From IMG/VR virus record IMGVR_UViG_3300044274_000334: 64,000 nucleotides of DNA. One strand, given 5' to 3'. The position numbers were made by a program, and so were the translations under genes. Within the stretch, counting starts at the first letter, position 1, and every line of letters starts with the position of its first letter. This DNA comes from a virus. Positions 1 to 13,113 of the stretch are shown in pieces. The notes below the pieces were generated by a model. The model was not told the origin of the DNA, did not search any database, and was given only the letters and a program-made list of their open reading frames with translations.

Positions 1-207
1 TAGTTTTTCAATCAATATATTCGTTATTTCAGAATAAGAGAGCTTCGATGCAAAATAATCAGCGGCATCTTCAATATACTCAAAATCCATCCGCGAAGCT
101 TCTTCGATATCCCGTTGGGAAAAAAGACATTGAGCTATTGAATGTATTTTTGGATACCATGTATCGATTTTATCGAAGTCAAGAATAGGCAAAGAAATTC
201 CTTTCAT
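1..207 (-). CDS. Hypothetical protein, N-terminal part (runs off left edge)
   Basis: Manual translation from ATG 207: MKGISLPILDFDKIDTWYPKIHSIAQ... open to position 1. Confidence 0.5.
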   Translation of the reverse strand, partial: MKGISLPILDFDKIDTWYPKIHSIAQCLFSQRDIEEASRMDFEYIEDAADYFASKLSYSEITNILIEKL

Positions 208-242
208 CTGAATTTAAGTACAAAAAATATGTTTGTTTCTCT

Positions 243-761
243 TTAAGTCGCATTTGCAATGTCAGCGTCTATTAAATTGAGTTCCGACTCCCACCATTCA
301 ATGGCTTCGGTCAGAACATCACGAGCATCATTACCTTCGAAATACCCTTCAACCATCGGTCTGTAGATATTTTCATCCAAGGACAGGACCTCGCGAAGGG
401 GAACTGCGTCTCCGCCATTGACAGGTTTGGCGATTGCCTCAATTGCAATATAAACCTCCCCTAGCGGGTGAACTTCGCTGCGATATTCCTTAAGCAGATT
501 ATTGCGTTCCTTCTCTATGAATTCATGAAAAATGATGTGTTCTTCCCGATTGGTCTGCCAGCGAGAATAAGCTTGGCGAATTACGTCAGAAGCAACTTTA
601 TTTTGCTTCGCGTCAACTTTGTGAAGAACATGACCTACTGCCCTAATGAGTGCTACCGCCGCAGCCCAATGTACGCGCCATTTGTCGTCATCAACATCTT
701 CTTCCAGCAACATCAGTGCAACGCGGCAGTCATCTAGTACTGTTCTCGCTTGGTAGGTCAT
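243..761 (-). CDS. Hypothetical protein, 172 aa
   Basis: Clean, protein-like helical ORF; divergent from the helicase. Confidence 0.75.
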   Translation of the reverse strand: MTYQARTVLDDCRVALMLLEEDVDDDKWRVHWAAAVALIRAVGHVLHKVDAKQNKVASDVIRQAYSRWQTNREEHIIFHEFIEKERNNLLKEYRSEVHPLGEVYIAIEAIAKPVNGGDAVPLREVLSLDENIYRPMVEGYFEGNDARDVLTEAIEWWESELNLIDADIANAT

Positions 762-1041
762 GTCTTCTTCCTACCTTTTCGAACGCATTGGATTTGAGCA
801 GATGTAGCTAGCTCTCTTTGCGAGCGTTTCGGTTGTAGGCTTCGTAAAATCCGGCAATACCATTAATTCTAAAATACTTTTCCTATCAATGTGTTGTATA
901 ATAACATACCTCAATTTAAAGTATAAACAACCAAATCGTGTGCCGGTTTGTTTTTGGGTCCGAGGAATGAGTGAACCCGTCCTCATCCGCACTGGCCAGC
1001 GACACGGAGAGCTTTGAAATTGCAGATTGATGATGTGAGAT

Positions 1042-4000
1042 ATGACCAAACGCGTTTTTGTAAAAAAGGGAATTGCTGAGCTTGAGAAGCTCTTTGATCA
1101 GCAGAAAAATGACAGCCGATTTTTGGACGATTTGGTTGGTGAACTGGAATTTCGAAAGACGCAACGCGCGTTGAAATTGAAGCAGACCGCAATACGGCGG
1201 AGGCGTTCTTTGGAAGGCGGAACCATTGAACCGGAAGCGGAGCCTCGTCTACCTATCGATGAGCCGAAGCCGAATAAACAATTCACCGCTGCGGCTAAGC
1301 CGATACCATCACCGTCGAAAGTAATTTCTTCAAAGCCAGCGCCAATTCCGGTAGAGCGAGCAGCACCCGCTCCGACCGAAATCACCAACGATACTGCCCA
1401 GATTTTGCGAGCTTGGACAGCGATGGAGGTTTTGTCTCCCGCCAGTTTTGATAAGCCGGAAAAGCTTGTGGGGGGAAGCAAGTGGGACGTTGCATGGCTC
1501 GAAAACGGTCTGCCTTGGGAAACAGGGCAGAATATCGGTAAGAAGAATTACCGCCTTTATTACCAGATCATCCTCGGCACAATTGACCTCGAAAGCGCAG
1601 TCAGTTCGTTGCTGTCCGTCTATACGGATTCTCGTATCGAGCGACCACCCGCCAAGGGAGAGGCGGTCCTTGCTTCCGTCATAGTCGATAAGGATGGACG
1701 CCCGGTAGATGAGGACGGACTTGCCCTTTCGAGTTTTGGGTGGGGAGTTCCCATCGCGCTTTCAGGGAACCTCAATGGGCTTGGCGCCTGGACCAGCGCG
1801 GAAAACAGCCTTTTGGAACAACTGAATGATCTTTTGGTTGTCGAAGACGAAGATGGCAATGTCCTCCCACTCAATATCGAGAACATCGAAGAGGCGTATG
1901 AGTGGTTGTTGGAGGCAACAGGTCTCGATAGACGACTAACCAAATCACCGACATTCGCAATCCGGCAATTTCAGTACTATACGAATTCGGAAGCACCGGA
2001 GTCGGTGCTCCTAAACTCATTCTTTCTTGGTGATTTGGCGCTGGCTACAGGTCTCGCGCGACAAGACAAGCTTACGTCCAACTTGTCTCTCTATCTCGGA
2101 GAATCGAGACCGAAGGAACGCCGCAACCTCTTAAGTGAAACGGATGCAATTCAATTCGCTCTTGAACCGAAAAAGTTTCCCAAAGGCGCATGGCCGGGCG
2201 ATGGGCGACACCCTTTGGTTACCTTGCAACAATGTGCGGTCAACCTTGCCTCTCATGACCTTCAGCAACAAGGTATTCTTGCGGTAAACGGTCCGCCGGG
2301 CACCGGGAAAACCACGTTATTGCGAGATGTGATCGCCTCCATCGTGACGGACCGGGCGCGGGTTATGACGTCCTATCGCGATCCCGAAACAGCCTTCACG
2401 CACTCGGGACAGAAGCTGAAAAAAGGTCAAGCGTTCGTCCATCTCTATCGGTTGGACGATAAACTGCGCGGCTCCGAAATTGTCGTTGCCTCGTCCAACA
2501 ACAAGGCTGTCGAGAATGTTAGCGCCGAATTGCCTGGCATTGACGCTGTGGCAAAAGATGCTGATGACCTTCGCTATTTCAAAACGGTTTCAGATCAGCT
2601 TTTGCAGAAGGAAAGCTGGGGCGCCATCGCAGCGGTGTTGGGAAATGCGGGTAACCGCGCGCAGTTCCGGAAAATGTTTTGGTGGGATGAAGATCATGGA
2701 CTTCATACCTACCTCAAGCATGCTTCGGGGAGCGGAAAACTCGTCTCCGAAGGACAAGGCGAAGACAGAACGCAAAGACCTCCTATTATTGTCGCTCGGG
2801 AAGATGCGCCTGAAGATCACGACCAGGCCCTCCGGCGGTGGCGAAAAGCCGTGGCGAAGTTCAAAGAACTCGACAAAGCGGTCGAACAGGAGATTGCGGA
2901 GTATCAAGCCGCACACGAATTAGCGGCGGATATTGTACGTGAAAAGGCTGTGGTCGAACTGCTCCTTGAGGAGATTGAAAACAAAGCAGAAGAACGAGAA
3001 ACAGCATCCACGAGCCTTAAACAAGCCAAGGATATCTGTATTCGTTGCCAGTCCGAAGTCGAGGCAGCACGCGCGATGTTGGCTGAAAGGCTTGCGGTAA
3101 AACCTGGTTTCTTCAAAAGGTTGTTTGATCGCGCCAATTACAGAATTTGGCGCGCGACGTATGATGAAGCCGGCGATCAGTTTGAGCTGGCCACAAGCAA
3201 TAACAGTCAGGCGATAAACCAACACCGCGAGGCAGAAGCTGCCCTTGCCGCCATTCAGGAATTCATAAGGAGCGGCGAAAATACCATTGCCGACAAACGG
3301 CGGTACATTGATCAAAGAACAAATGAGTATCGTCGGCTGATCAATGAGCTTGGCGGTACTCCCATCGATGATGATTTTTTCGATCAGTCTTCGAGAGAGC
3401 GACAAACGGCTACGCCTTGGTTCAGCGAGAAGCTATCACGGCTGCGTCAGGACCTCTTCCAACAAGCAATGGCTCTTCACAAGGCGTTTGTTGACGCCGC
3501 CGCGAAGCCGATCAGGCATAATCTGAATATCCTGCTCGACGGGTTCGGCACGAAATCTTTGGGTTCTGCCGAGAAGGACGCGCTAATCCCGCATATGTGG
3601 TCAACGCTTTTTCTGGTGGTTCCGGCTGTTTCGACAACTTTCGCATCCGTCTCGCGCATGTTTGGGCGGCTACATCCGAATGAGCTGGGCTGGCTTCTGA
3701 TTGACGAAGCAGGACAAGCGCTGCCGCAAGCGGCTGTCGGCGCAATCATGCGAACCAAACGCGCTATCGTCGTTGGTGATCCAATCCAGATCGAGCCCGT
3801 TGTGGTGTTGCCGGAGTCGTTGACCGAAGCGATCTGTAAGCAGTTTGGGATTGACCCGTTAATCTACAATGCACCGCAAGCGTCCACACAAACGATGGCT
3901 GACAGCGCGACCTCATATTTTGCGACCTTCGAGGCGCAGTTCGGTACACGCGAAGTTGGTGTTCCGCTTCTGGTTCATCGACGCTGCGCCGACCCGATGT

Positions 4001-4539
4001 TCAGTATTTCAAACCATATCGCCTATGAAGACCAGATGGTGCAGGCGAAAGCTGAAAAACAGTCGAATATCAGGACAGTCCTGGGTTCACCGCGATGGAT
4101 TGATATTCGCGGAGACGCACAAGAAAAATGGTGCCCGCAAGAGGGGCAGGAAGTGCTGAAACTGCTTCAGGCGATGAGGCAGGATCGATGCGCGGCGGAG
4201 ATATACATCGTGACACCTTTTGTCGTTGTGCAGAATCGTATGCGTGAATTGCTCCGCCGTGAACGCATTTTGGAAGGCTGGGTGGATGAACCCAACCGCT
4301 GGATCAATGAGCGGATTGGAACTGTTCACACGGTACAGGGTCGTGAAGCCGAAGGAGTGATTATGATCCTCGGCGCACCGCGTGCCGATCAACGAGGCGC
4401 GCGAGGGTGGGCGGGCGGTCGCCCCAACCTTCTGAATGTGGCGGTGACACGCGCCAAGGAGACGCTCTACGTTGTTGGCAATCGCGAGCTATGGCGGGAA
4501 GCGGGACACTTCAAGACGCTTGATGCGTACTTGAATTAG
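1042..4539 (+). CDS. Superfamily 1 (UPF1/DNA2-like, AAA_11/AAA_12) helicase
   Basis: Walker A GPPGTGKTT, SSNNKAVEN, motif II IDEAGQ, VGDPIQIEP, HRRC, GTVHTVQGRE, motif VI NVAVTRAK; long coiled-coil insert. Confidence 0.92.
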   Translation: MTKRVFVKKGIAELEKLFDQQKNDSRFLDDLVGELEFRKTQRALKLKQTAIRRRRSLEGGTIEPEAEPRLPIDEPKPNKQFTAAAKPIPSPSKVISSKPAPIPVERAAPAPTEITNDTAQILRAWTAMEVLSPASFDKPEKLVGGSKWDVAWLENGLPWETGQNIGKKNYRLYYQIILGTIDLESAVSSLLSVYTDSRIERPPAKGEAVLASVIVDKDGRPVDEDGLALSSFGWGVPIALSGNLNGLGAWTSAENSLLEQLNDLLVVEDEDGNVLPLNIENIEEAYEWLLEATGLDRRLTKSPTFAIRQFQYYTNSEAPESVLLNSFFLGDLALATGLARQDKLTSNLSLYLGESRPKERRNLLSETDAIQFALEPKKFPKGAWPGDGRHPLVTLQQCAVNLASHDLQQQGILAVNGPPGTGKTTLLRDVIASIVTDRARVMTSYRDPETAFTHSGQKLKKGQAFVHLYRLDDKLRGSEIVVASSNNKAVENVSAELPGIDAVAKDADDLRYFKTVSDQLLQKESWGAIAAVLGNAGNRAQFRKMFWWDEDHGLHTYLKHASGSGKLVSEGQGEDRTQRPPIIVAREDAPEDHDQALRRWRKAVAKFKELDKAVEQEIAEYQAAHELAADIVREKAVVELLLEEIENKAEERETASTSLKQAKDICIRCQSEVEAARAMLAERLAVKPGFFKRLFDRANYRIWRATYDEAGDQFELATSNNSQAINQHREAEAALAAIQEFIRSGENTIADKRRYIDQRTNEYRRLINELGGTPIDDDFFDQSSRERQTATPWFSEKLSRLRQDLFQQAMALHKAFVDAAAKPIRHNLNILLDGFGTKSLGSAEKDALIPHMWSTLFLVVPAVSTTFASVSRMFGRLHPNELGWLLIDEAGQALPQAAVGAIMRTKRAIVVGDPIQIEPVVVLPESLTEAICKQFGIDPLIYNAPQASTQTMADSATSYFATFEAQFGTREVGVPLLVHRRCADPMFSISNHIAYEDQMVQAKAEKQSNIRTVLGSPRWIDIRGDAQEKWCPQEGQEVLKLLQAMRQDRCAAEIYIVTPFVVVQNRMRELLRRERILEGWVDEPNRWINERIGTVHTVQGREAEGVIMILGAPRADQRGARGWAGGRPNLLNVAVTRAKETLYVVGNRELWREAGHFKTLDAYLN

Positions 4540-4726
4540 CCGCTTTAACAAGGAGCGATCAAACGGTGATCCGTTTGAATGGAAGTAGTAGGCTCGATGC
4601 CGCCCCATCACCAATTATCAGGGTGATCCAACGTCCCTTCGTTGGTCAGGATGAAACGCCGAACCGTTTCGCTGGTGCTGACAGGCTCAATGCCTGATCA
4701 GCGCCATTAGCCGGAGGGGATGCAAC

Positions 4727-4784
4727 GGGGAGCGCGCAGCGGGCTCCCCTTGCCAAGATGTGCTGTGCAACAGCACACATCTTG
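4727..4784. other. Paired inverted repeats around CTTGCCA; candidate oriT
   Basis: GGGGAGC/GCTCCCC (4727-4749) and CAAGATGTG/CACATCTTG (4754-4784) with inner TGTGCTGT/ACAGCACA. Confidence 0.35.
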
Positions 4785-4802
4785 CATCATCACTTAATGC
4801 TT

Positions 4803-5762
4803 TCAGATGTCCGAATGGACCTCATCTTGGGTAGTAGTGCGGATGTGACGGAACTGCGTGTCTGATACGACTGCGACACCCTCCAGGGGCACTTTATGGT
4901 CTTTCCAAATCAGCTCTAGCAGATCCTCAGCGCTGCAATCTGGATAGAGAAGTGGTCTCTCGCAATCCAACTGAGGGCACATGAGAATGCCTTTATTGGC
5001 ATAAGGGAAATGAATCGCCACACCATGGCGCTTTGTGGAAAGCGAACGGAAATAGCTAACACCGTAAGCGCCATAAGTCGCACTTCCCAAAGGCAGTGCC
5101 GTCTTTACATTTGCTTCGATGTGAAAGATTTGGCTGCCCGTATCCCACTCACTCTTAACTTCATAGACGAAAACGCTATCGGCACCGCCGCCAATAAGGC
5201 CGGTATCAGCAAAATGATGCTCTAGATATAACTCAATGTGGAAGTGGCCGACCTCAGACAATTGTTCGTCATCTATCACAGCTCGAAAGGCTTCACGCAT
5301 ACGCTCATTCACCGGCCGCGTGCTCTCCAAGCTATGAAACGCCGCTTGATACGCGGCGAAGGCTGGCTGGCTGCCAATCCATGCCGAAGTCGCGTCGTGA
5401 GTTACATTCCCATCTTTAATGACTGTAATGCGGGGGCTACGAGCAATAACTTCGCATAGAATGAATTCACATTCTTGAGCAGAATCCCTATGAACTTGTT
5501 CCAGTTCTTCAACCAGCCGTGGAGTATTCCAGGACTTAAGTTCTTCAGAAAAAAAACGCTTCAGAAATTCCGTTGCAAAACCTGAGTTTCCTGCAAACGA
5601 GAGGCATATATGAGGATGAAGAATAACAGTTTTCAGCAGGCCAGATAGCGGCGCATTCTGACGTAAATTACGTTCTGAGACAGTTCCAAATGTATCAATC
5701 ACTTTGGAATCTGAATGAACATACAATTCATCGCTCTCTTTACGGCACACAACTAAAGTCAT
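4803..5762 (-). CDS. Proteasome-beta/HslV-like Ntn-hydrolase with extra C-terminal domain
   Basis: After Met removal: T1, D17, K19, K43..G57 (same 14-residue spacing as K33..G47), and WIGS resembling the AIGSG motif. Confidence 0.65.
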   Translation of the reverse strand: MTLVVCRKESDELYVHSDSKVIDTFGTVSERNLRQNAPLSGLLKTVILHPHICLSFAGNSGFATEFLKRFFSEELKSWNTPRLVEELEQVHRDSAQECEFILCEVIARSPRITVIKDGNVTHDATSAWIGSQPAFAAYQAAFHSLESTRPVNERMREAFRAVIDDEQLSEVGHFHIELYLEHHFADTGLIGGGADSVFVYEVKSEWDTGSQIFHIEANVKTALPLGSATYGAYGVSYFRSLSTKRHGVAIHFPYANKGILMCPQLDCERPLLYPDCSAEDLLELIWKDHKVPLEGVAVVSDTQFRHIRTTTQDEVHSDI

Positions 5763-5823
5763 TATTTTAATCCGTATTCAGAGAAAGGTCTGTGTTAAAC
5801 TGGAACTTTCGGCCAGAAGCCAA

Positions 5824-6258
5824 TTACACGAGACGGGGGGCCGGTGCCTTTTGTTTTTCCAGACGTGTTTTAATGGCGGTCAAATAGTGCGCATGGAGAC
5901 CGTCTTTGGCTTCTATTCCGCGTATCAACTGATGATACTGCCTTGATAGAACTAAAAGTATCGCCTCAGCAGCCTCATGTTTTCGAGATTTTGCAAAGCG
6001 ACAAAATTCAACCATATCCTCTAATGGACATCGACCGTCAGCATTTGAGCTCAACAGATCAAATCCTGCGTCCATTAGAGCGATGATTGCATGTGGAGCC
6101 TGCCCTTTTCGGAACATATTGACCGCGACACACCCTAAGTCCTGCTCTTTCTCGCCCAACTCACCGTTGTAGTCTAAAAGCGCATACGCAACAGCTTGTC
6201 TATCATTCAACTCAATCGCGTCTTTAACCTCCAAATATAAACTCTCTCTGCTTTTCAC
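5824..6258 (-). CDS. Hypothetical protein, possible ankyrin-like repeat
   Basis: AIIALMDAGFDLLSSNADGRCPLEDMV resembles one ankyrin unit; GTG start with AAGGA. Confidence 0.55.
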   Translation of the reverse strand: MKSRESLYLEVKDAIELNDRQAVAYALLDYNGELGEKEQDLGCVAVNMFRKGQAPHAIIALMDAGFDLLSSNADGRCPLEDMVEFCRFAKSRKHEAAEAILLVLSRQYHQLIRGIEAKDGLHAHYLTAIKTRLEKQKAPAPRLV

Positions 6259-6502
6259 TTAAATCCTTTTTATTAATAATATAATTTTCACTGTGAAGTA
6301 TTTTCTCTAAAATATCTTGGTCTATATCATAAAATTGTATAATTTCACAAGTTTTCATAACTTGGTGTGATCGAACCCAGTGAAAACTGTAACCAAAATG
6401 AGGAACGACATCCACCTTATGGGCGTCGAATCGAAAACTGGTTATTGCCTAACAGAAGGGCTAAATTTGCGTTGGAACGAATTGGCACTGTAGGAATAGC
6501 TG

Positions 6503-7417
6503 ATGGCATCAGGCCGCAAAACTTCGAGTAACGATGCAGAGAAAGCTCTGCTTGAAGCACTAATCGATGAGTTATCGGACAAGCAACTTTCTTCGCGCGA
6601 TCTGGACGACGTTATTAATCAGCATCTTCTTGGAGCGCCCCCAGAGCCTGAACACACCTCCCCCGACCAGGAAAATCAAGAGCAAGATAAACGCCCTTTG
6701 ATAGAGGACATGATCGCTCGTAGGCGACCAAAGCTCATTAAATCGCCGTCAGGAAGGGTTATTAAAAACCCCGATATTAGTGCGTCTTCAAAAATGCGAG
6801 ACGCTACGCGAACGATCAATCCTTTGAAGCTCAAGGCAAAGGTGTTGGCGCTAGCGACTGCAGAGCTTTCCAAAATTAAATTAACAAAACTGTTGCAAGA
6901 AATCGGAGAAATATTAGAAGATAAAGACTTGGGAAGGAAATTAGACGCATTAACAAAACAACATATAAGAGAACAGATATCTGAACTGTTCTCTACAGCG
7001 TCTAAATCTATATTCACATCAGAAGCTGAGTTCCATGACTTCGTTCGGGAAATCGCTAGCGAATTCCTCGCACCAGTGGATGGAGCTGAATTGCCTACTG
7101 AAGCGCCCGCGTTATGGGCCGACCGAACCACAGGTCGAGAGGTGACACCCGTAGATTTCATCAAGCAATATTACGGCGAGTTTGTCGCTACCGATCTCCC
7201 CCAGCAACATCGACTGCCCCGCCCGCTCCTGCGCGAACTAGATATGCCGCTCTACAACGCTTACGCCGCCTGGATAAAAAGACATCCAGAGGATGATTTG
7301 CACCTCCCTACCCGCTCTCAACTAGTCGATCTAGAGCTGTCAAATCTAGATGAGGCTACCCTCAGACGGGCAGGCCGTCTTAAGTCGACCGCATATCGGC
7401 GGAAAAACGATTTGTAA
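6503..7417 (+). CDS. Hypothetical protein, 304 aa
   Basis: Long ORF with TAGGA upstream; no family recognised. Confidence 0.75.
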   Translation: MASGRKTSSNDAEKALLEALIDELSDKQLSSRDLDDVINQHLLGAPPEPEHTSPDQENQEQDKRPLIEDMIARRRPKLIKSPSGRVIKNPDISASSKMRDATRTINPLKLKAKVLALATAELSKIKLTKLLQEIGEILEDKDLGRKLDALTKQHIREQISELFSTASKSIFTSEAEFHDFVREIASEFLAPVDGAELPTEAPALWADRTTGREVTPVDFIKQYYGEFVATDLPQQHRLPRPLLRELDMPLYNAYAAWIKRHPEDDLHLPTRSQLVDLELSNLDEATLRRAGRLKSTAYRRKNDL

Positions 7418-7434
7418 ATTTTAAGTCCAAAACG

Positions 7435-7463
7435 TTGACAAATAATGTCTCGTTCACTATGTT
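7435..7463 (+). promoter_or_regulatory. Sigma70-type promoter
   Basis: TTGACA-17 bp-TATGTT; TTGACAA...TTGTCAA inverted repeat spans it. Confidence 0.6.
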
Positions 7464-7499
7464 TATCTTGTCAAACGGATGAACAGAGAGGACTAGTTC

Positions 7500-7628
7500 A
7501 TGACTTTGAGCACAGAGCAGCAGAACCGTATCGCCGAGATCGCACGCAAAGGCGGCACTGTCCCGACGAATGGGTTGCCGTGGCAAACCAAAGAAAAGAT
7601 CGACGCTATCGTGAACAAAAATAAGTAG
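7500..7628 (+). CDS. Small 42-aa protein, below the ORF-track cutoff
   Basis: MTLSTEQQNRIAEIARKGGTVPTNGLPWQTKEKIDAIVNKNK; GAGAGGA RBS; own promoter and terminator. Confidence 0.6.
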   Translation: MTLSTEQQNRIAEIARKGGTVPTNGLPWQTKEKIDAIVNKNK

Positions 7629-7656
7629 TCGCGAACACACGAGCAAGAACCTCGGG

Positions 7657-7684
7657 CCCGGCGACTGCGGTTGCCGGGTTTTTC
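7657..7684 (+). terminator. Intrinsic terminator
   Basis: CCCGGCGAC-TGCG-GTTGCCGGG then TTTTT. Confidence 0.75.
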
Positions 7685-7754
7685 GTTTTCTAGTCAGTAA
7701 AACGAAAGAATATTACGTCGTTTTTACTTGGAGCAATAGGACTTTTATCCTATT

Positions 7755-8114
7755 ATGTTCTCTAATTGTTCTTTCAAAATGAAAGAGACGAAAAGGAGAA
7801 AACCAAGCGAGAAAAGGCTCAGGAGGGCCGAGGAGAAAAAGACATTGACCGGCACGCCACACGACTATGAAATCGACAAGGAAGGCATGCCCACCTTGTC
7901 TATCGATTGGGAGCTCTATGCAGAACTCCTCAGCGAATCCGACCTTGCGGACGAAGAGAAGCGCGAATTCATCGAGACCTTGTGGTCGCTGATAGTGAGC
8001 TTCGTTGACCTGGGCTTTGGGATCAGCTCGGAAAGCCGGATCACTAACTTATTGCCCGATGGCTTGCCTGAACAAATAGAAGCTCACATGAGAGACGAAA
8101 GGAGGTCACCATGA
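7755..8114 (+). CDS. Small conserved-looking protein coupled to the serine recombinase
   Basis: IDWELY...EFIETLWSLIVSFVDLGFG; stop overlaps recombinase start (ATGA). Confidence 0.7.
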   Translation: MFSNCSFKMKETKRRKPSEKRLRRAEEKKTLTGTPHDYEIDKEGMPTLSIDWELYAELLSESDLADEEKREFIETLWSLIVSFVDLGFGISSESRITNLLPDGLPEQIEAHMRDERRSP

Positions 8115-9667
8115 ACCAGCACTCCCCTATTCCCAACCAGACAGCCACACGCGCTGTGATCTACTGTCGGGTATCGGGAAGCAAGCAAGTGCGTGAGGGC
8201 GATGGCCTCGCCTCTCAAGAACGTCGCTGCCGAGAATATGCGGCCCACCACAAATATGATGTGGTTGAGGTCTTCCATGACGATATCTCTGGCAAGAGCC
8301 TAGAGCGCCCAGCCATGACGGCTATGCTTGCCTACTTGCGAAAGCACAAGAGCCAGCGACAGCACGTGGTTGTCATCGATGACATAAGCCGATTTGCGCG
8401 TGGATTGTAGGCACACCTTGAACTCCGCGCCCTACTCGCTCAGGCGGGCGGCAAGCTTGAAAGCCCTTCAATCGAATTCGGGGAAGACTCAGACTCCCTT
8501 CTCATTGAGCACCTGCTCGCCAGCGTGGCGCAGCACCAACGCGAGAAGAACGGCGAGCAGACCGTCAACCGCATGCGGGCACGCATGATGAACGGCTATT
8601 GGGTATTTCAGGCTCCTGTCGGTTTTAGGTATGAACGCTCTGGGCAGCACGGCAAGGTTCTCGTCCGTAACGAACCTGTTTCGAGTATCTTGACTGAAGC
8701 ACTAGAAGCCTATGCATCTGGCCGCTTCGACAGTCAGGCGGAAATCCGACACTTCCTCGAAGGACATCCTCTCTACCCAAAAAACAAAAAGGGGCAGGTC
8801 GTCCAACAGCGTGTGACTGACATTCTCGACCAGCCACTTTATGCGGGACATATTACCCACGAAAACTGGAACCTGAATCTTGTCAGAGGAAAGCACGAGG
8901 GGCTGGTTTCACTTGAGACATGGTTCAAGATTCAAGAACGCCGTAACGGGGCTTTAAAGGCCCCTACACGCAGAGACATCAGCGCAGACTTCCCTCTACG
9001 CGGTTTCGTCCTTTGCGCCGACTGTGGCAAGCCCTACACAGCCTGCTGGTCGCATGGAATGACGAAGCAGTATCCCTATTATCTGTGCGACACAAAAGAC
9101 TGCCTGAGCTATCGCAAATCGATCAAACGCGCTGCCCTCGAAGGCGCATTTGAAGAGATTGTGCAAAACCTCCAGCCAGGAGAGAAACTCTTCGATCTGG
9201 TTCGCGCGATGTTCACCGACGCGTGGAAGCAAAGACAAGCTCAAGCAAGCTCGCTTACGGACGGCTTGAAACGGGAACTCACGAAGCTGGAAAATCAGAT
9301 TGATGGCTTTCTGAATCGTATCGTCGATGCGTCGAGCCCATCAGTCATCACTGCCTATGAAAAGAAGATCGAATCTTTGGAAACGCAGAAGCTTTTGATC
9401 GAAGATAAGCTGCAAAATGGATCACAGCCTCTCTACACCTTCGAAGAGCTTATCGAACTCACCTGCGATTTTCTGGCAAGTCCTTGGAATCTATGGCGTT
9501 CTGGCCAACTGCACCTGCGTAGACTGGTGCTAAAACTGGCCTTTGCCGAACGCATGACCTACTGCCGTGAAAACGGCTATCGAACTGCAAAATTATCTTT
9601 GCCGTTCAAAGTGTTAGATCAGATTCAAAACCATCCAGAAGGGATGGTGCGGTCGAGAAACACCTGA
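8111..9667 (+). pseudogene. Large serine recombinase interrupted by in-frame TAG at 8408-8410
   Basis: YCRVS catalytic motif, DDISRFAR, recombinase domain, CxxC...C zinc ribbon, coiled coil; same frame continues after TAG (AHLELR...). Confidence 0.9.
9645..9659 (-). other. Candidate att core matching a tRNA-Leu 3' end (TTCTCGACCGCACCA)
   Basis: Reverse complement ends in ACCA and matches my recollection of alphaproteobacterial tRNA-Leu(GAG); lies between the two recombinase genes. Confidence 0.6.
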
Positions 9668-9837: not shown

Positions 9838-11028
9838 ATGAAAAACAAACTTACGGCTACCGCGATCAAGAACTCCAAAGAGAGCAGGCTCTACGACGGC
9901 GGCGGCCTGATGATGATCAAAAAGGGTGTGACCGGGACGTGGTACTTTCGGTACAGCCACCTTGGCAAACGCCGGGACATGGGCCTTGGTACCTGGCCCG
10001 ACATCTCACTCGCTACCGCTCGCGAGGCTCGTGACAAATGGGCGGCAGTTCTCGCCGAAGGCATCGACCCTATCTCGAAGCGAGAAGAAGACCGGCTTGC
10101 AGAAATCGCGGAACGCGACAAAGAGGATCCGACGTTTGCTGAAATGGTGGACGTTGTGTTCGAGCAGATTAAGGGACGCCTTCGTGGCGGCGGTGTCCGT
10201 GGACGATGGCGGAGCCCTCTCGATATCCATGTCATCCCGAAGATCGGCCGCAAGCGCATGTCCCAGATAACCCAGATGGATATCAGGGACGCTATCAAAC
10301 CAATCTGGCGCAAAAAACACCCAACGGCTGAAAAGGCTATCCAACGTACCCGCATCGTATTCAATGAAAGCCGATACGCCGGGATCAGTTGCGACCCGTT
10401 CACGGTAGATGCAGCAGAGCGATTGCTTGGCGCCCACAACCACGAGGTCACGCACATCGAAGCAACCGACTGGCGCGATGTGCCGGCGCTTTGGAACAAG
10501 CTTGACCCCTCCACTGCCGCTGGCCGGTGCCTTCAATGGATGCTCCTGACGTTGGTGCGCTTCGATGGCTGCAGAATGGCACGAACCACCGAGGTGAAAG
10601 ACGGGATATGGATCGTCCCTAAGGAGCGGGTGAAGGGTCGCGAGGGCAAGGTTCGAGACTTCCACGTGCCTTTGCCTGAAGCAGCTCTCGAGATCGTGAG
10701 GGAGGCGGAAGAACAAGGCCGTGAGCTGATGTTCCCAGGACGACGAGGAAAGCCCATCACCTCTCGCGGCATCGAGGTCTATCTCGACCGTGTCGATGAG
10801 CCTGGTCGGCCGCACGGGTTTCGCACCGCATTTCGCACGTGGGTACAGGACAATGACGTGTGCTCATTCGAAGTGGCCGAAACGATCCTCAACCACAAAA
10901 TCGGATCCACGGTTGAGAGATCCTATGCCAGATCCGACCTGCTCGATCGCCGTGCGCCCGTGATGGAAGCCTGGGCGAACTATGTTTTGCAGGGAAATGG
11001 AAACGTCGTTTCGCTTCGCCGAGCATAG
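9838..11028 (+). CDS. int: Tyrosine integrase, P4-like
   Basis: N-terminal arm-binding domain (LYDGGGL...W.FRY), LVR, HGFR, LNH, catalytic Y in RSYARSD. Confidence 0.95.
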   Translation: MKNKLTATAIKNSKESRLYDGGGLMMIKKGVTGTWYFRYSHLGKRRDMGLGTWPDISLATAREARDKWAAVLAEGIDPISKREEDRLAEIAERDKEDPTFAEMVDVVFEQIKGRLRGGGVRGRWRSPLDIHVIPKIGRKRMSQITQMDIRDAIKPIWRKKHPTAEKAIQRTRIVFNESRYAGISCDPFTVDAAERLLGAHNHEVTHIEATDWRDVPALWNKLDPSTAAGRCLQWMLLTLVRFDGCRMARTTEVKDGIWIVPKERVKGREGKVRDFHVPLPEAALEIVREAEEQGRELMFPGRRGKPITSRGIEVYLDRVDEPGRPHGFRTAFRTWVQDNDVCSFEVAETILNHKIGSTVERSYARSDLLDRRAPVMEAWANYVLQGNGNVVSLRRA

Positions 11029-11207
11029 GATACAACACGATACTCAGCACTTACAGATGAATAATTTAATTATTCAGCAGAGAGGCTCGAATTACTAACG
11101 TAATGTTCAGTTAGAACACTGATTATTCCTGCAGATTGCGTGCCCTTGTCTTTATAGACATGAGCATTCATGATCGCCTCAAATTTACTTACTCGGAGGT
11201 TGGGTTG

Positions 11208-12971
11208 ATGTCGTTGACTCCGCGCGGCATGAGCGTTCAGGAAGCATATCGTCTTTATTCTGACGAAAAACTCACAGTGAATCGCCGTTATCAAAGAAAG
11301 TTGGTTTGGTCGGAAGCTGAAAAGCGACATCTGGTGGACTCAGTGGAAAAAGAGCTACCAGTCCCGCTGTTTATGTTTGCTAAAAGCAATAAAGATCCTG
11401 AAAAACTCGAAATAATCGATGGGATGCAAAGACTAAATGCAATTTTCTCATTTATCGAACATCAGTTCCTTGACGAGTCTGGTAAGTGCTTTGACGTTAG
11501 CCAATTCGCTCGAGCAACGCTCGTTAGAGATGCTGGTGTTTTTCAGGAGTATCCGGCAGAGATAGACCGGCTCCCCCCCGAAGAATGCGCAAAATTCCTA
11601 GAGTACCAATTGGCTGTAACGATAGACAGCGAAGGTAATGAAGATCGAATAAACGAAGTATTCGGCCGGATTAACAGTGGGGGACGCCGACTCAGCCCCC
11701 AAGAACAACGCCAAGCAGGCTTGGTATCAGATTTTTCCGAGTTCGTTAGAGAACTCGCTCTGGAGTTACGAGGAGACTCCTCTCCCAATGTTTTGCTTCT
11801 CAATAAAATGCCAGAAGTGAGCTTTAACACTCCAAAGGAACGACAGAGATACGGCATCGACGCCTCTGATGTATTTTGGTGTAAGCATGGGGTTATCACT
11901 GCAAATGATTTGGCACGTAGCCTGGATGAGCAAATAGTCTCTGATTTTGCAATTTCCCTGTTAAACGGCGAGCCGGTGAACGCGAGCCGAGAAGTGTTTG
12001 ACACATATTTCGACCCGAAATCTGAAGAATTTTCTGAGATCCATGCTGTACTAAATGCTTACGGTCCGGGGCGGCTCAAAGCTGAATTTTTGGCGACTAT
12101 AGGCGCAATACGGTCCGTTTTTGAGACAGGCGAATTTCTCTCTTTTCGAAATTGCGTGCACGAACAACCACGCAATCCAGCAAGAACGACTTTCTATGCC
12201 GTATTTATGTCTTTCCATGAGCTGATGTTCAAAAGCGGGATGTTTCCCGACGATTTTGGTGCAATTCGTAATGCCTTATCAGATGTCCAGAAGGACATGA
12301 TACGATCGGCGCATCACACGACGACAGCCGATCGCCAGCGTAATATCGCTGTGATCACAGGACTTATTCAAAAGTTCTTCGTGAAGAAGGATGTGGCAGC
12401 ATTCGGATCAGCGCACGCACTTGTAGTTGATCTAGAAAATTCTTTACGCCGTGCTCGATACGAAGCCAGTAGATACGAGTTCAAGTTGGGGGTGTGCGAC
12501 CTCAGTTCCACGCCGGCCTTAGCTCAGGGAATGTATGCCAAGCTGGCCCGAACCGCATGCGCAATTGCCAACACCAATCCGGGTAGCGATGGATATATAT
12601 ATCTTGGCGTTGCCGACAAACAAAGCGCAACTATCAGAGTTCAGGAGCTCTTCGGCACCGAGCCGATAAATATCGGCAATGTATATTTTGTCGGTCTCTC
12701 CCACGACTTAGCAATAATGGAGATGGACCTGGAAAATTACATTAAGAGACTGATTGCCGAAATCTCTAAACTTGACGTGTCAGAACCTCTGAGAACGCAG
12801 ATTGCAACCACAATTGACCATGCTGAATATCAAGGGCGACCATTTGTGAGGATAAGAGTCCCGGCCCAAGGTGAACTCTCCAGCTTTGAAGGTGCTTACC
12901 CTGTGAGGAAAAATTCTGAAACAGTGGATATGGGACCAACAGAGGCAGTGGCACAATCGAAGTTGTTCTGA
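11208..12971 (+). CDS. DUF262 (GmrSD/ParB-like) - Schlafen/AlbA_2 fusion
   Basis: RYQRKLVW, IIDGMQRL, FGRINSGG; C-terminal E-x4-E-x-K (EASRYEFK), IAN...GYIYLGVAD; GGAGG before ATG 11208. Confidence 0.85.
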   Translation: MSLTPRGMSVQEAYRLYSDEKLTVNRRYQRKLVWSEAEKRHLVDSVEKELPVPLFMFAKSNKDPEKLEIIDGMQRLNAIFSFIEHQFLDESGKCFDVSQFARATLVRDAGVFQEYPAEIDRLPPEECAKFLEYQLAVTIDSEGNEDRINEVFGRINSGGRRLSPQEQRQAGLVSDFSEFVRELALELRGDSSPNVLLLNKMPEVSFNTPKERQRYGIDASDVFWCKHGVITANDLARSLDEQIVSDFAISLLNGEPVNASREVFDTYFDPKSEEFSEIHAVLNAYGPGRLKAEFLATIGAIRSVFETGEFLSFRNCVHEQPRNPARTTFYAVFMSFHELMFKSGMFPDDFGAIRNALSDVQKDMIRSAHHTTTADRQRNIAVITGLIQKFFVKKDVAAFGSAHALVVDLENSLRRARYEASRYEFKLGVCDLSSTPALAQGMYAKLARTACAIANTNPGSDGYIYLGVADKQSATIRVQELFGTEPINIGNVYFVGLSHDLAIMEMDLENYIKRLIAEISKLDVSEPLRTQIATTIDHAEYQGRPFVRIRVPAQGELSSFEGAYPVRKNSETVDMGPTEAVAQSKLF

Positions 12972-13113
12972 TGAGAACCGCCACGACTCGCTCGATGGTT
13001 CGCAATGTGCTTACTTTCGTTGCCAACAATATTTAATCGCTAAAATTATCTTGCTCTCTGTCAACCACCGGTAGTTTCTAGCACAGCCCTTCGTTCATAC
13101 GTATGGGCGCACT

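Follow-up and report, generated by a model that had tools for sequence, protein, structure and literature searches.

The window analyzed here, a stretch of 64,000 nucleotides from a viral record (IMGVR_UViG_3300044274_000334), carries on its minus strand (4803..5762, read 5762 -> 4803) an ORF of 319 aa, P0001, which probably encodes an unannotated, active relative of the cutting subunit of the proteasome, with an extra domain attached. The explanation that we consider best overall, and hold with moderate confidence, is that P0001 is a propeptide-less, two-domain Ntn hydrolase of the proteasome-beta type, carried as mobile cargo, that would act as a selective, ATPase-independent threonine peptidase. 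Residues 1–207 (5142..5762, minus strand) are predicted to form a complete proteasome-beta-type fold, and residues 208–319 (4806..5141, minus strand) constitute a conserved alpha/beta domain of unrecognized fold.

The Met-Thr start of P0001 is forced, since an in-frame TGA lies 18 nt upstream of the ATG and no earlier start codon is available. In addition to Thr2, the putative nucleophile once Met is gone, the N-domain harbors Asp18, Lys20, Lys44, Gly58, and the triplet W128-I129-G130. An earlier note on this DNA, numbering from the residue after Met, had listed T1, D17, K19, K43, and G57; all of these are present in the translated ORF, with a K43-G57 spacing of 14 residues. None of the annotation resources that we searched recognizes the protein: P0001 matched no Pfam family at E ≤ 10, PF00227 included, and had no match in NCBIfam, PHROGs, or PADLOC, whose library (v2.0.0) dates from 2023 and covers the defense systems described up to then. 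Searching the PDB by sequence, either with P0001 itself or with a 27-sequence profile, likewise gave no match. PF00227 is found on 14% of the members of one related ESM Atlas cluster, and the named relatives (accessions were obtained for ten) are all called “hypothetical protein,” one of them being a Methanococcoides record.

A word-based search retrieved 41 relatives of P0001, and a profile search of 1.84 billion representatives retrieved 1,498 at E ≤ 1e-3, with 387 of them at E ≤ 1e-30. Look-alikes in the ESM Atlas belong to unnamed clusters in Bacteroidota, Bacillota, and Pseudomonadota. Nearly all relatives from the profile search are ~280–320 aa long and align from their own residue 1, indicating that the family has no propeptide. 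Of 177 diverse relatives, 121 begin with MT and 42 with MS, together 163 of the 177. Such an alternation of Thr and Ser right after Met is what is predicted for an N-terminal nucleophile that lacks a propeptide, and the specificity of methionine aminopeptidase leads one to expect that Met is removed ahead of Thr or Ser. In the same set, Lys44 and Gly130 are invariant (177/177 each), and Asp18 (176/177), Gly58 (172/177), and Trp128 (171/177) are nearly so; D18, K44, G58, and W128-I129-G130 are invariant or nearly invariant whether 27, 87, or 177 relatives are considered. Judged by sequence, the conservation of the catalytic motif is thus beyond chance, and the proposed T1/D17/K43 set holds across homologues. 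Moreover, since these residues are conserved almost totally among relatives that are only ~25% identical, the pattern indicates selection on catalysis.

The surroundings of the predicted active site differ from those of proteasomes. The earlier note had equated a WIGS stretch with the GSG loop; the W-I-G part is indeed conserved, whereas the next position holds Asp in most members of the wider family and is therefore not a conserved counterpart of proteasome Ser129. The position of Ser129 itself is occupied by Ile or Leu in the family, and counterparts of proteasome Asp166 and Ser169 were not located in P0001. The Asp after W-I-G, together with the Ile/Leu at the Ser129 position, points to a secondary catalytic shell unlike that of proteasomes.

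An AlphaFold2 model of P0001, built on 27 homologues, reached a mean pLDDT of 87 and a pTM of 0.85. When this model was compared with the PDB by Foldseek, the top 50 matches were 20S proteasome subunits only, the best being the Thermoplasma beta subunit (1pma, E 2.7e-7). VIA-align superposed the model on the Thermoplasma acidophilum beta subunit with a Z score of 16.9 and an rmsd of 3.4 over 173 aligned residues, pairing model residues 2..207 with chain residues 1..198; residue 2 of the model thereby falls on residue 1 of the chain, placing Thr2 on the catalytic Thr1 (1pma/6bdf). The Ntn alpha-beta-beta-alpha sandwich that had been proposed from the letters alone is thus borne out by the predicted structure. 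The comparison with Anbu gave a Z score of 16.4, and BPH (5OVS) was absent among the structural matches listed for the model. Both helix pairs are predicted, namely H1 (60–72) with H2 (80–93), followed by 132–144 with 151–164, and a low-confidence insert of 10–17 residues lies between Asp18 and Lys44. A profile of 87 family sequences searched against the PDB gave weak matches only, to proteasome alpha-7 chains (E ~0.2), with the alignment falling exactly on the K33...AG(G47) stretch, and hhalign against single HslV and Anbu sequences returned probabilities of ~1%, with alignments that are sensible, not significant. The proposed kinship of P0001 with the proteasome rests on the structure prediction, on motif conservation, and on these weak profile matches (E ~0.2).

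We compared P0001 with the known relatives of the proteasome. Like 20S beta subunits (archaeal PsmB, MEROPS T1, PF00227), P0001 is predicted to have the full alpha-beta-beta-alpha Ntn fold (Z 16.9) and has equivalents of Thr1, Asp17, Lys33, and Gly47, with an identical Lys-to-Gly spacing. Unlike them, it has no propeptide, no alpha-subunit partner, and no sequence match to PF00227; it carries the 10–17 residue insert before the catalytic Lys, Ile/Leu in place of Ser129, and the extra domain of 112 aa; and its gene is rare and mobile, whereas 20S beta subunits are core machinery.

HslV (ClpQ) and Anbu are, as P0001 is predicted to be, bacterial threonine peptidases of the proteasome fold encoded by a single gene. 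HslV is a single-domain protein of ~175–185 aa with the AAA+ gene hslU adjacent; Anbu is encoded in an operon with transglutaminase-like, alpha-E, and ATP-grasp genes; and BPH has a single-domain subunit with a long acidic pore loop, assembled into a tetradecameric double ring. P0001 is ~110 aa longer than HslV and Anbu and has negligible sequence similarity to the two such proteins of G001, the nearest of the compared genomes of the genus. Assignment to HslV was rejected, as P0001 has 319 aa and a second domain, and its neighbors are an SF1 helicase gene and an ankyrin-like ORF, with no hslU. Assignment to Anbu was rejected as well, with no transglutaminase-like/alpha-E/ATP-grasp operon among the neighbors here or elsewhere. 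No HslU, transglutaminase, or ATP-grasp gene lies beside the hydrolase gene in the window, and the genes of the Anbu operon are also missing from the other annotated loci, in agreement with the earlier placement of this context outside HslV and Anbu loci. G001 encodes a separate HslV of 186 aa (L049). It also has an Anbu-like gene (243 aa, Met-Thr start), located directly after a transglutaminase-like ORF (L050, 585-2223) and ~76 kb from the copy of the prophage in that genome. As G001 already possesses both HslV and an Anbu-like gene, the hydrolase is an addition and not a replacement.

A closer resemblance in general terms is found among the orphan proteasome homologues, of which 22 families were catalogued by Fuchs, Alva and Lupas in 2021 (PMC8665760); this catalogue is the nearest account in print. 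These are propeptide-less, have no AAA+ partner and an uninformative genomic context, and conserve Thr/Ser1-Asp-Lys-Gly (PMC8665760). Several of them, namely RPC, DAH, and GPH/“DGH,” have C-terminal domains that match no structure (PMC8665760). P0001 fits this general description, being bacterial and propeptide-less, with no ATPase partner and with an unmatched C-terminal domain. RPC is restricted to Proteobacteria, lacks helix H2, and has a C-terminal extension (PMC8665760); the latter is the only feature in common with the P0001 family, which has H2 in the model and is common in Bacteroidota, and RPC was accordingly rejected. GPH is found in Proteobacteria and Euryarchaeota only, and DAH mainly in Actinobacteria (PMC8665760). 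None of the accessions of the ten relatives matched the 22 representatives given in the catalogue (PMC8665760). Compared by description, the P0001 family may coincide with one of the catalogued, uncharacterized families. “Uncharacterised Ntn-peptidase family,” the wording of the earlier note, is a fair one, although such homologues and their C-terminal domains have been on record since 2021 (PMC8665760).

The extra C-terminal sequence amounts to ~112 aa (208–319), given the boundary that VIA-align sets at residue 207, and not to the “about 130 aa” first estimated. This region is conserved family-wide, with Gly226, Gly231, His251-Phe252, Gly258, Pro263, and Gly295 standing out. A model of this region by itself (pLDDT 78) shows about six strands in one sheet and a single helix. 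Foldseek with residues 208–319 found no match below E 0.2; the best match in a VIA-align comparison with a wide set of 48,161 chains was Med18/20, whose Z of 5.1 over 56 residues does not rise above background; and the search of the ESM Atlas with the C-terminal part returned nothing above 0.87. For lack of a convincing structural match, we call this region an unrecognized fold, as distinct from a new fold. C-terminal TPR repeats are present in 7 of the 10 longest relatives, and also at a Chitinophagaceae locus (L007).

We then considered where the gene lies. From position ~9644 rightward, the window is a prophage, 94–95% identical to G001, and the part to its left (1–9643) has no match in that genome. 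This left part carries the SF1 helicase, the hydrolase, a 144-aa ORF, a 304-aa ORF, and a split large serine recombinase; the hydrolase cassette thus sits in a serine-recombinase island that adjoins the prophage. The 144-aa ORF (5824..6258, minus strand), directly upstream of the hydrolase gene, is ankyrin-repeat-like, as phmmer matches it to designed ankyrin proteins (E 1.7e-5); no counterpart of this ORF was found beside the homologues in other loci. The extent of the cassette is given by G083, a genome of the same genus, in which window positions 4568–4787 are matched at 89%, followed by ~55 bp and then by 6415–6582 and 6830–9659. The island of G083 therefore lacks exactly 4788–6414, which defines the hydrolase gene and the 144-aa ORF, with the region upstream of the latter, as a two-gene unit of insertion or deletion of 1.6 kb (4788..6414). 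A search of the ends of this unit for terminal repeats and target-site duplications found nothing beyond short matches of the size expected by chance.

On its left, the breakpoint of the cassette abuts a conserved, hairpin-rich, noncoding element (4568..4800), which adjoins the hydrolase gene at its 3′ end and separates it from the helicase gene. This element recurs in at least nine genomes of the genus at 76–89% identity, sometimes far from any helicase homologue, and shows compensatory changes at 8 of 50 predicted pairs in four aligned sequences. It has no match in Rfam; a small RNA, a repeat, and a recombination site are all conceivable. The large serine recombinase of the island (8111..9667, plus strand) is split into a 99-aa ORF with the resolvase domain (8111–8410) and a 380-aa ORF with the recombinase and zinc-ribbon parts (8525–9667), while its homologue in G083 is one intact ORF of 582 aa. 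It thus appears that the island’s own recombinase is broken here.

Other genes on this side of the window were annotated as well. The SF1 helicase (1042–4539, plus strand; 1,165 aa) matches Mokosh MkoC over residues 389–1155 (E 2.7e-67); no match was obtained for its N terminus (390 aa), and the alignment stops short of the end of the MkoC profile. A copy of the helicase that is 91% identical is present on a different contig of G083, showing that the helicase moves independently of the hydrolase. The 304-aa ORF (6503–7417, plus strand) has a weak match to PtuB, the HNH partner of Septu (E 1e-4), and a counterpart of 310 aa in the G083 island. A GmrSD(DUF262)-Schlafen gene (11025–13032) lies next to the prophage integrase, ~5 kb from the hydrolase gene. 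It is the sole stretch at the left end of the prophage that is not common to G001, where ~3 kb of other DNA is found instead, which suggests an exchangeable cargo slot in the prophage.

To describe the distribution of the gene, ~28 loci were gathered from species genomes, metagenomes, and a survey of Flavobacterium. Carriers of the gene are few: none was found among 132 genomes of the host family, one among 401 of the class, and eight among 401 Flavobacterium genomes. A positive control recovered the gene in five out of five known carriers. With two sub-family alignments, no relatives turned up among 50,697 phage records and 72,556 plasmids or in IMG/VR; for IMG/VR, searched with narrow patterns, this is weak evidence of absence. 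In 19 of 22 loci, the gene is poorer in GC than the DNA that flanks it; the difference averages 7 points and amounts to 16 in Sagittula. Among the ~28 copies, about five independent lineages carry a broken gene, through a TAA stop (L002/L011, and L004), a frameshift (L013, and L045 from G816), or a stop together with a frameshift (L046, from G655). The stop common to L002 and L011 is real, since these loci are 99% identical and come from two independent assemblies. The in-frame TAA is found at codon 86 of well-conserved homologues (L002, 8256–8258; L011, 664–666; L004, 8256–8258), and the position of the L004 stop in the alignment differs from that of the L002/L011 stop.

Comparing all neighboring ORFs against each other by BLAST, in 24 and then in 26 loci, revealed no conserved partner gene, and neither did a direct comparison of the ORFs upstream and downstream of the homologues. 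In particular, no ATPase emerged from these neighbor comparisons as a fixed partner of the hydrolase gene, and neighbors are common to several loci only within near-identical islands (L002/L011 and L006/L046). Taken together, these results show that the gene moves horizontally as AT-rich cargo, is rare, and has no fixed partner.

Based on the analogy with proteasome beta subunits, we propose that Met1 is cut off by methionine aminopeptidase, which would expose Thr2; the hydroxyl of Thr2, aided by Asp18 and Lys44, would attack a peptide or amide bond, and the backbone of Gly58 would provide the oxyanion hole. The enzyme would most likely work with no dedicated ATPase, as a selective peptidase (or an amidase or transpeptidase), and the conserved C-terminal domain (208–319) may serve in the recognition of a target or partner. 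The TPR repeats of some relatives would add to such recognition, and at the present locus the ankyrin-like protein could possibly supply it in trans, a linkage that is seen at this one locus only.

A role in genetic conflict, for instance in anti-phage defense, is plausible if speculative. In its most specific form, P0001 would be the effector of a small anti-phage or conflict module, in which a phage cue switches the protease on via the C-terminal domain or repeat sensors, so that host or phage proteins are cut; we regard this as unlikely, though less so than the other alternatives. It agrees with the position of the hydrolase beside the Mokosh-type (MkoC-like) helicase and ~5 kb from the GmrSD-Schlafen gene at the prophage integrase, with a gene that is rare, unevenly distributed, rich in AT, and frequently disrupted, features that defense genes tend to have, and with the TPR fusions, which fit a sensor-effector design. 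Elsewhere, a homologue directly follows a PDC-M62 (Septu-like) ATPase/HNH set in L006 and L046, and a NERD nuclease adjoins another in L014; ArdC is a further neighbor of this mobile or defense type. However, defense genes are found near homologues in a minority of loci only, and most individually annotated loci carry housekeeping neighbors (purA, enolase, asd, a tRNA synthetase, an ABC exporter, and a cation-efflux protein), which together with the lack of a PADLOC match for P0001 argues against this explanation. In the two Flavobacterium genomes of L006 (2576–7672) and L046 (2481–7577), the set comprises a PDC-M62B/PtuB-like protein together with two PDC-M62A-like ATPases and immediately precedes the hydrolase homologue on its strand; these genomes represent two species, and in one of them the hydrolase is broken.

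The phrase “a defence or deconjugating enzyme” in the earlier note is therefore not established, with defense-type neighbors here and in a few other loci and housekeeping neighbors in most loci. No ubiquitin-like, E1, E2, or JAB gene was found in the individually annotated loci or among the 25 commonest of 105 matched Pfam families, and our full-text search of a library of papers found none that ties a proteasome-like, Ntn, or proteasome-homologue protein to phage defense. A broader version, by which the family would be a new class of conflict proteases, pairing a proteasome-type Thr/Ser protease, within a single polypeptide or across a two-gene cassette, with a recognition module (the C-domain, TPR, or ankyrin-like repeats) that senses the invader and unleashes proteolysis, is in our estimate less probable still.

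Lower again we place the possibility of a ring resembling that of HslV or BPH, in which P0001 would be a general, self-compartmentalized protease for unfolded or damaged proteins, with the C-domains on the outside. The complete predicted beta fold, including helices H1–H4, which make ring contacts in proteasomes, would allow such an assembly, and the added domain need not block it, given that C termini generally point away from the rings (PMC8665760). Against this, relatives of the host already have HslV and an Anbu-like gene, the hydrolase gene occurs far too seldom, and is disrupted too frequently, to have a housekeeping function, and a propeptide-less protease would be active from birth and would need another safeguard.

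Another alternative, which we consider improbable, is that P0001 is not a hydrolase and acts instead as a transpeptidase or ligase in the manner of connectase, the amino group of Thr/Ser1 being joined to a specific target in a stable amide intermediate. Connectase (MJ0548, an archaeal ligase) has the same overall design, being ~300 aa long and propeptide-less, with Thr or Ser at position 1, no ATPase, and a proteasome-like N-domain followed by a C-terminal domain; moreover, the insert just before the catalytic Lys of P0001 falls at the site of the connectase specificity element, and the nearest named ESM Atlas cluster for the C-terminal part is connectase, at a score (0.78) within the chance range. 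Unlike P0001, however, connectase lacks H1 and H2, both of which the P0001 model has (60–72 and 80–93), is confined to methanogens, and has its own Pfam models, PF09894 and PF25274, neither of which P0001 matches; it is also absent from the best structural matches listed for the full-length and C-domain models. P0001 was therefore not assigned to connectase. Finally, P0001 might be a scaffold that has lost its catalytic activity, or its gene might be decaying and devoid of function, as the five disrupted copies out of ~28 could indicate. This is very improbable, since the copy in the window is intact and the nucleophile, Asp, Lys, and oxyanion Gly are conserved almost throughout among relatives of ~25% identity.

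With the exception of connectase, an archaeal ligase, no function is known for the proteasome relatives of bacteria other than HslV. Connectase itself is now a biotechnology tool. The present analysis describes a large family, of ~1,500 sequence clusters, that is invisible to Pfam, NCBIfam, PADLOC, and PHROGs and is apparently catalytically intact, and which combines an appended domain of unrecognized fold with a probable independence from any ATPase gene. Moreover, the natural pair of islands with and without the hydrolase defines a compact, clonable cassette of 1.6 kb, which is open to experiment, as are the relatives fused to TPR repeats. Whether a new branch of proteasome biology would be opened depends on the protein proving to be a specific protease, a specific ligase, or an effector of immunity; otherwise, the family would be one more entry in the already long list of orphan homologues. 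If it is the protease of a conflict system, this would be the first biological role for the orphan proteasome homologues.
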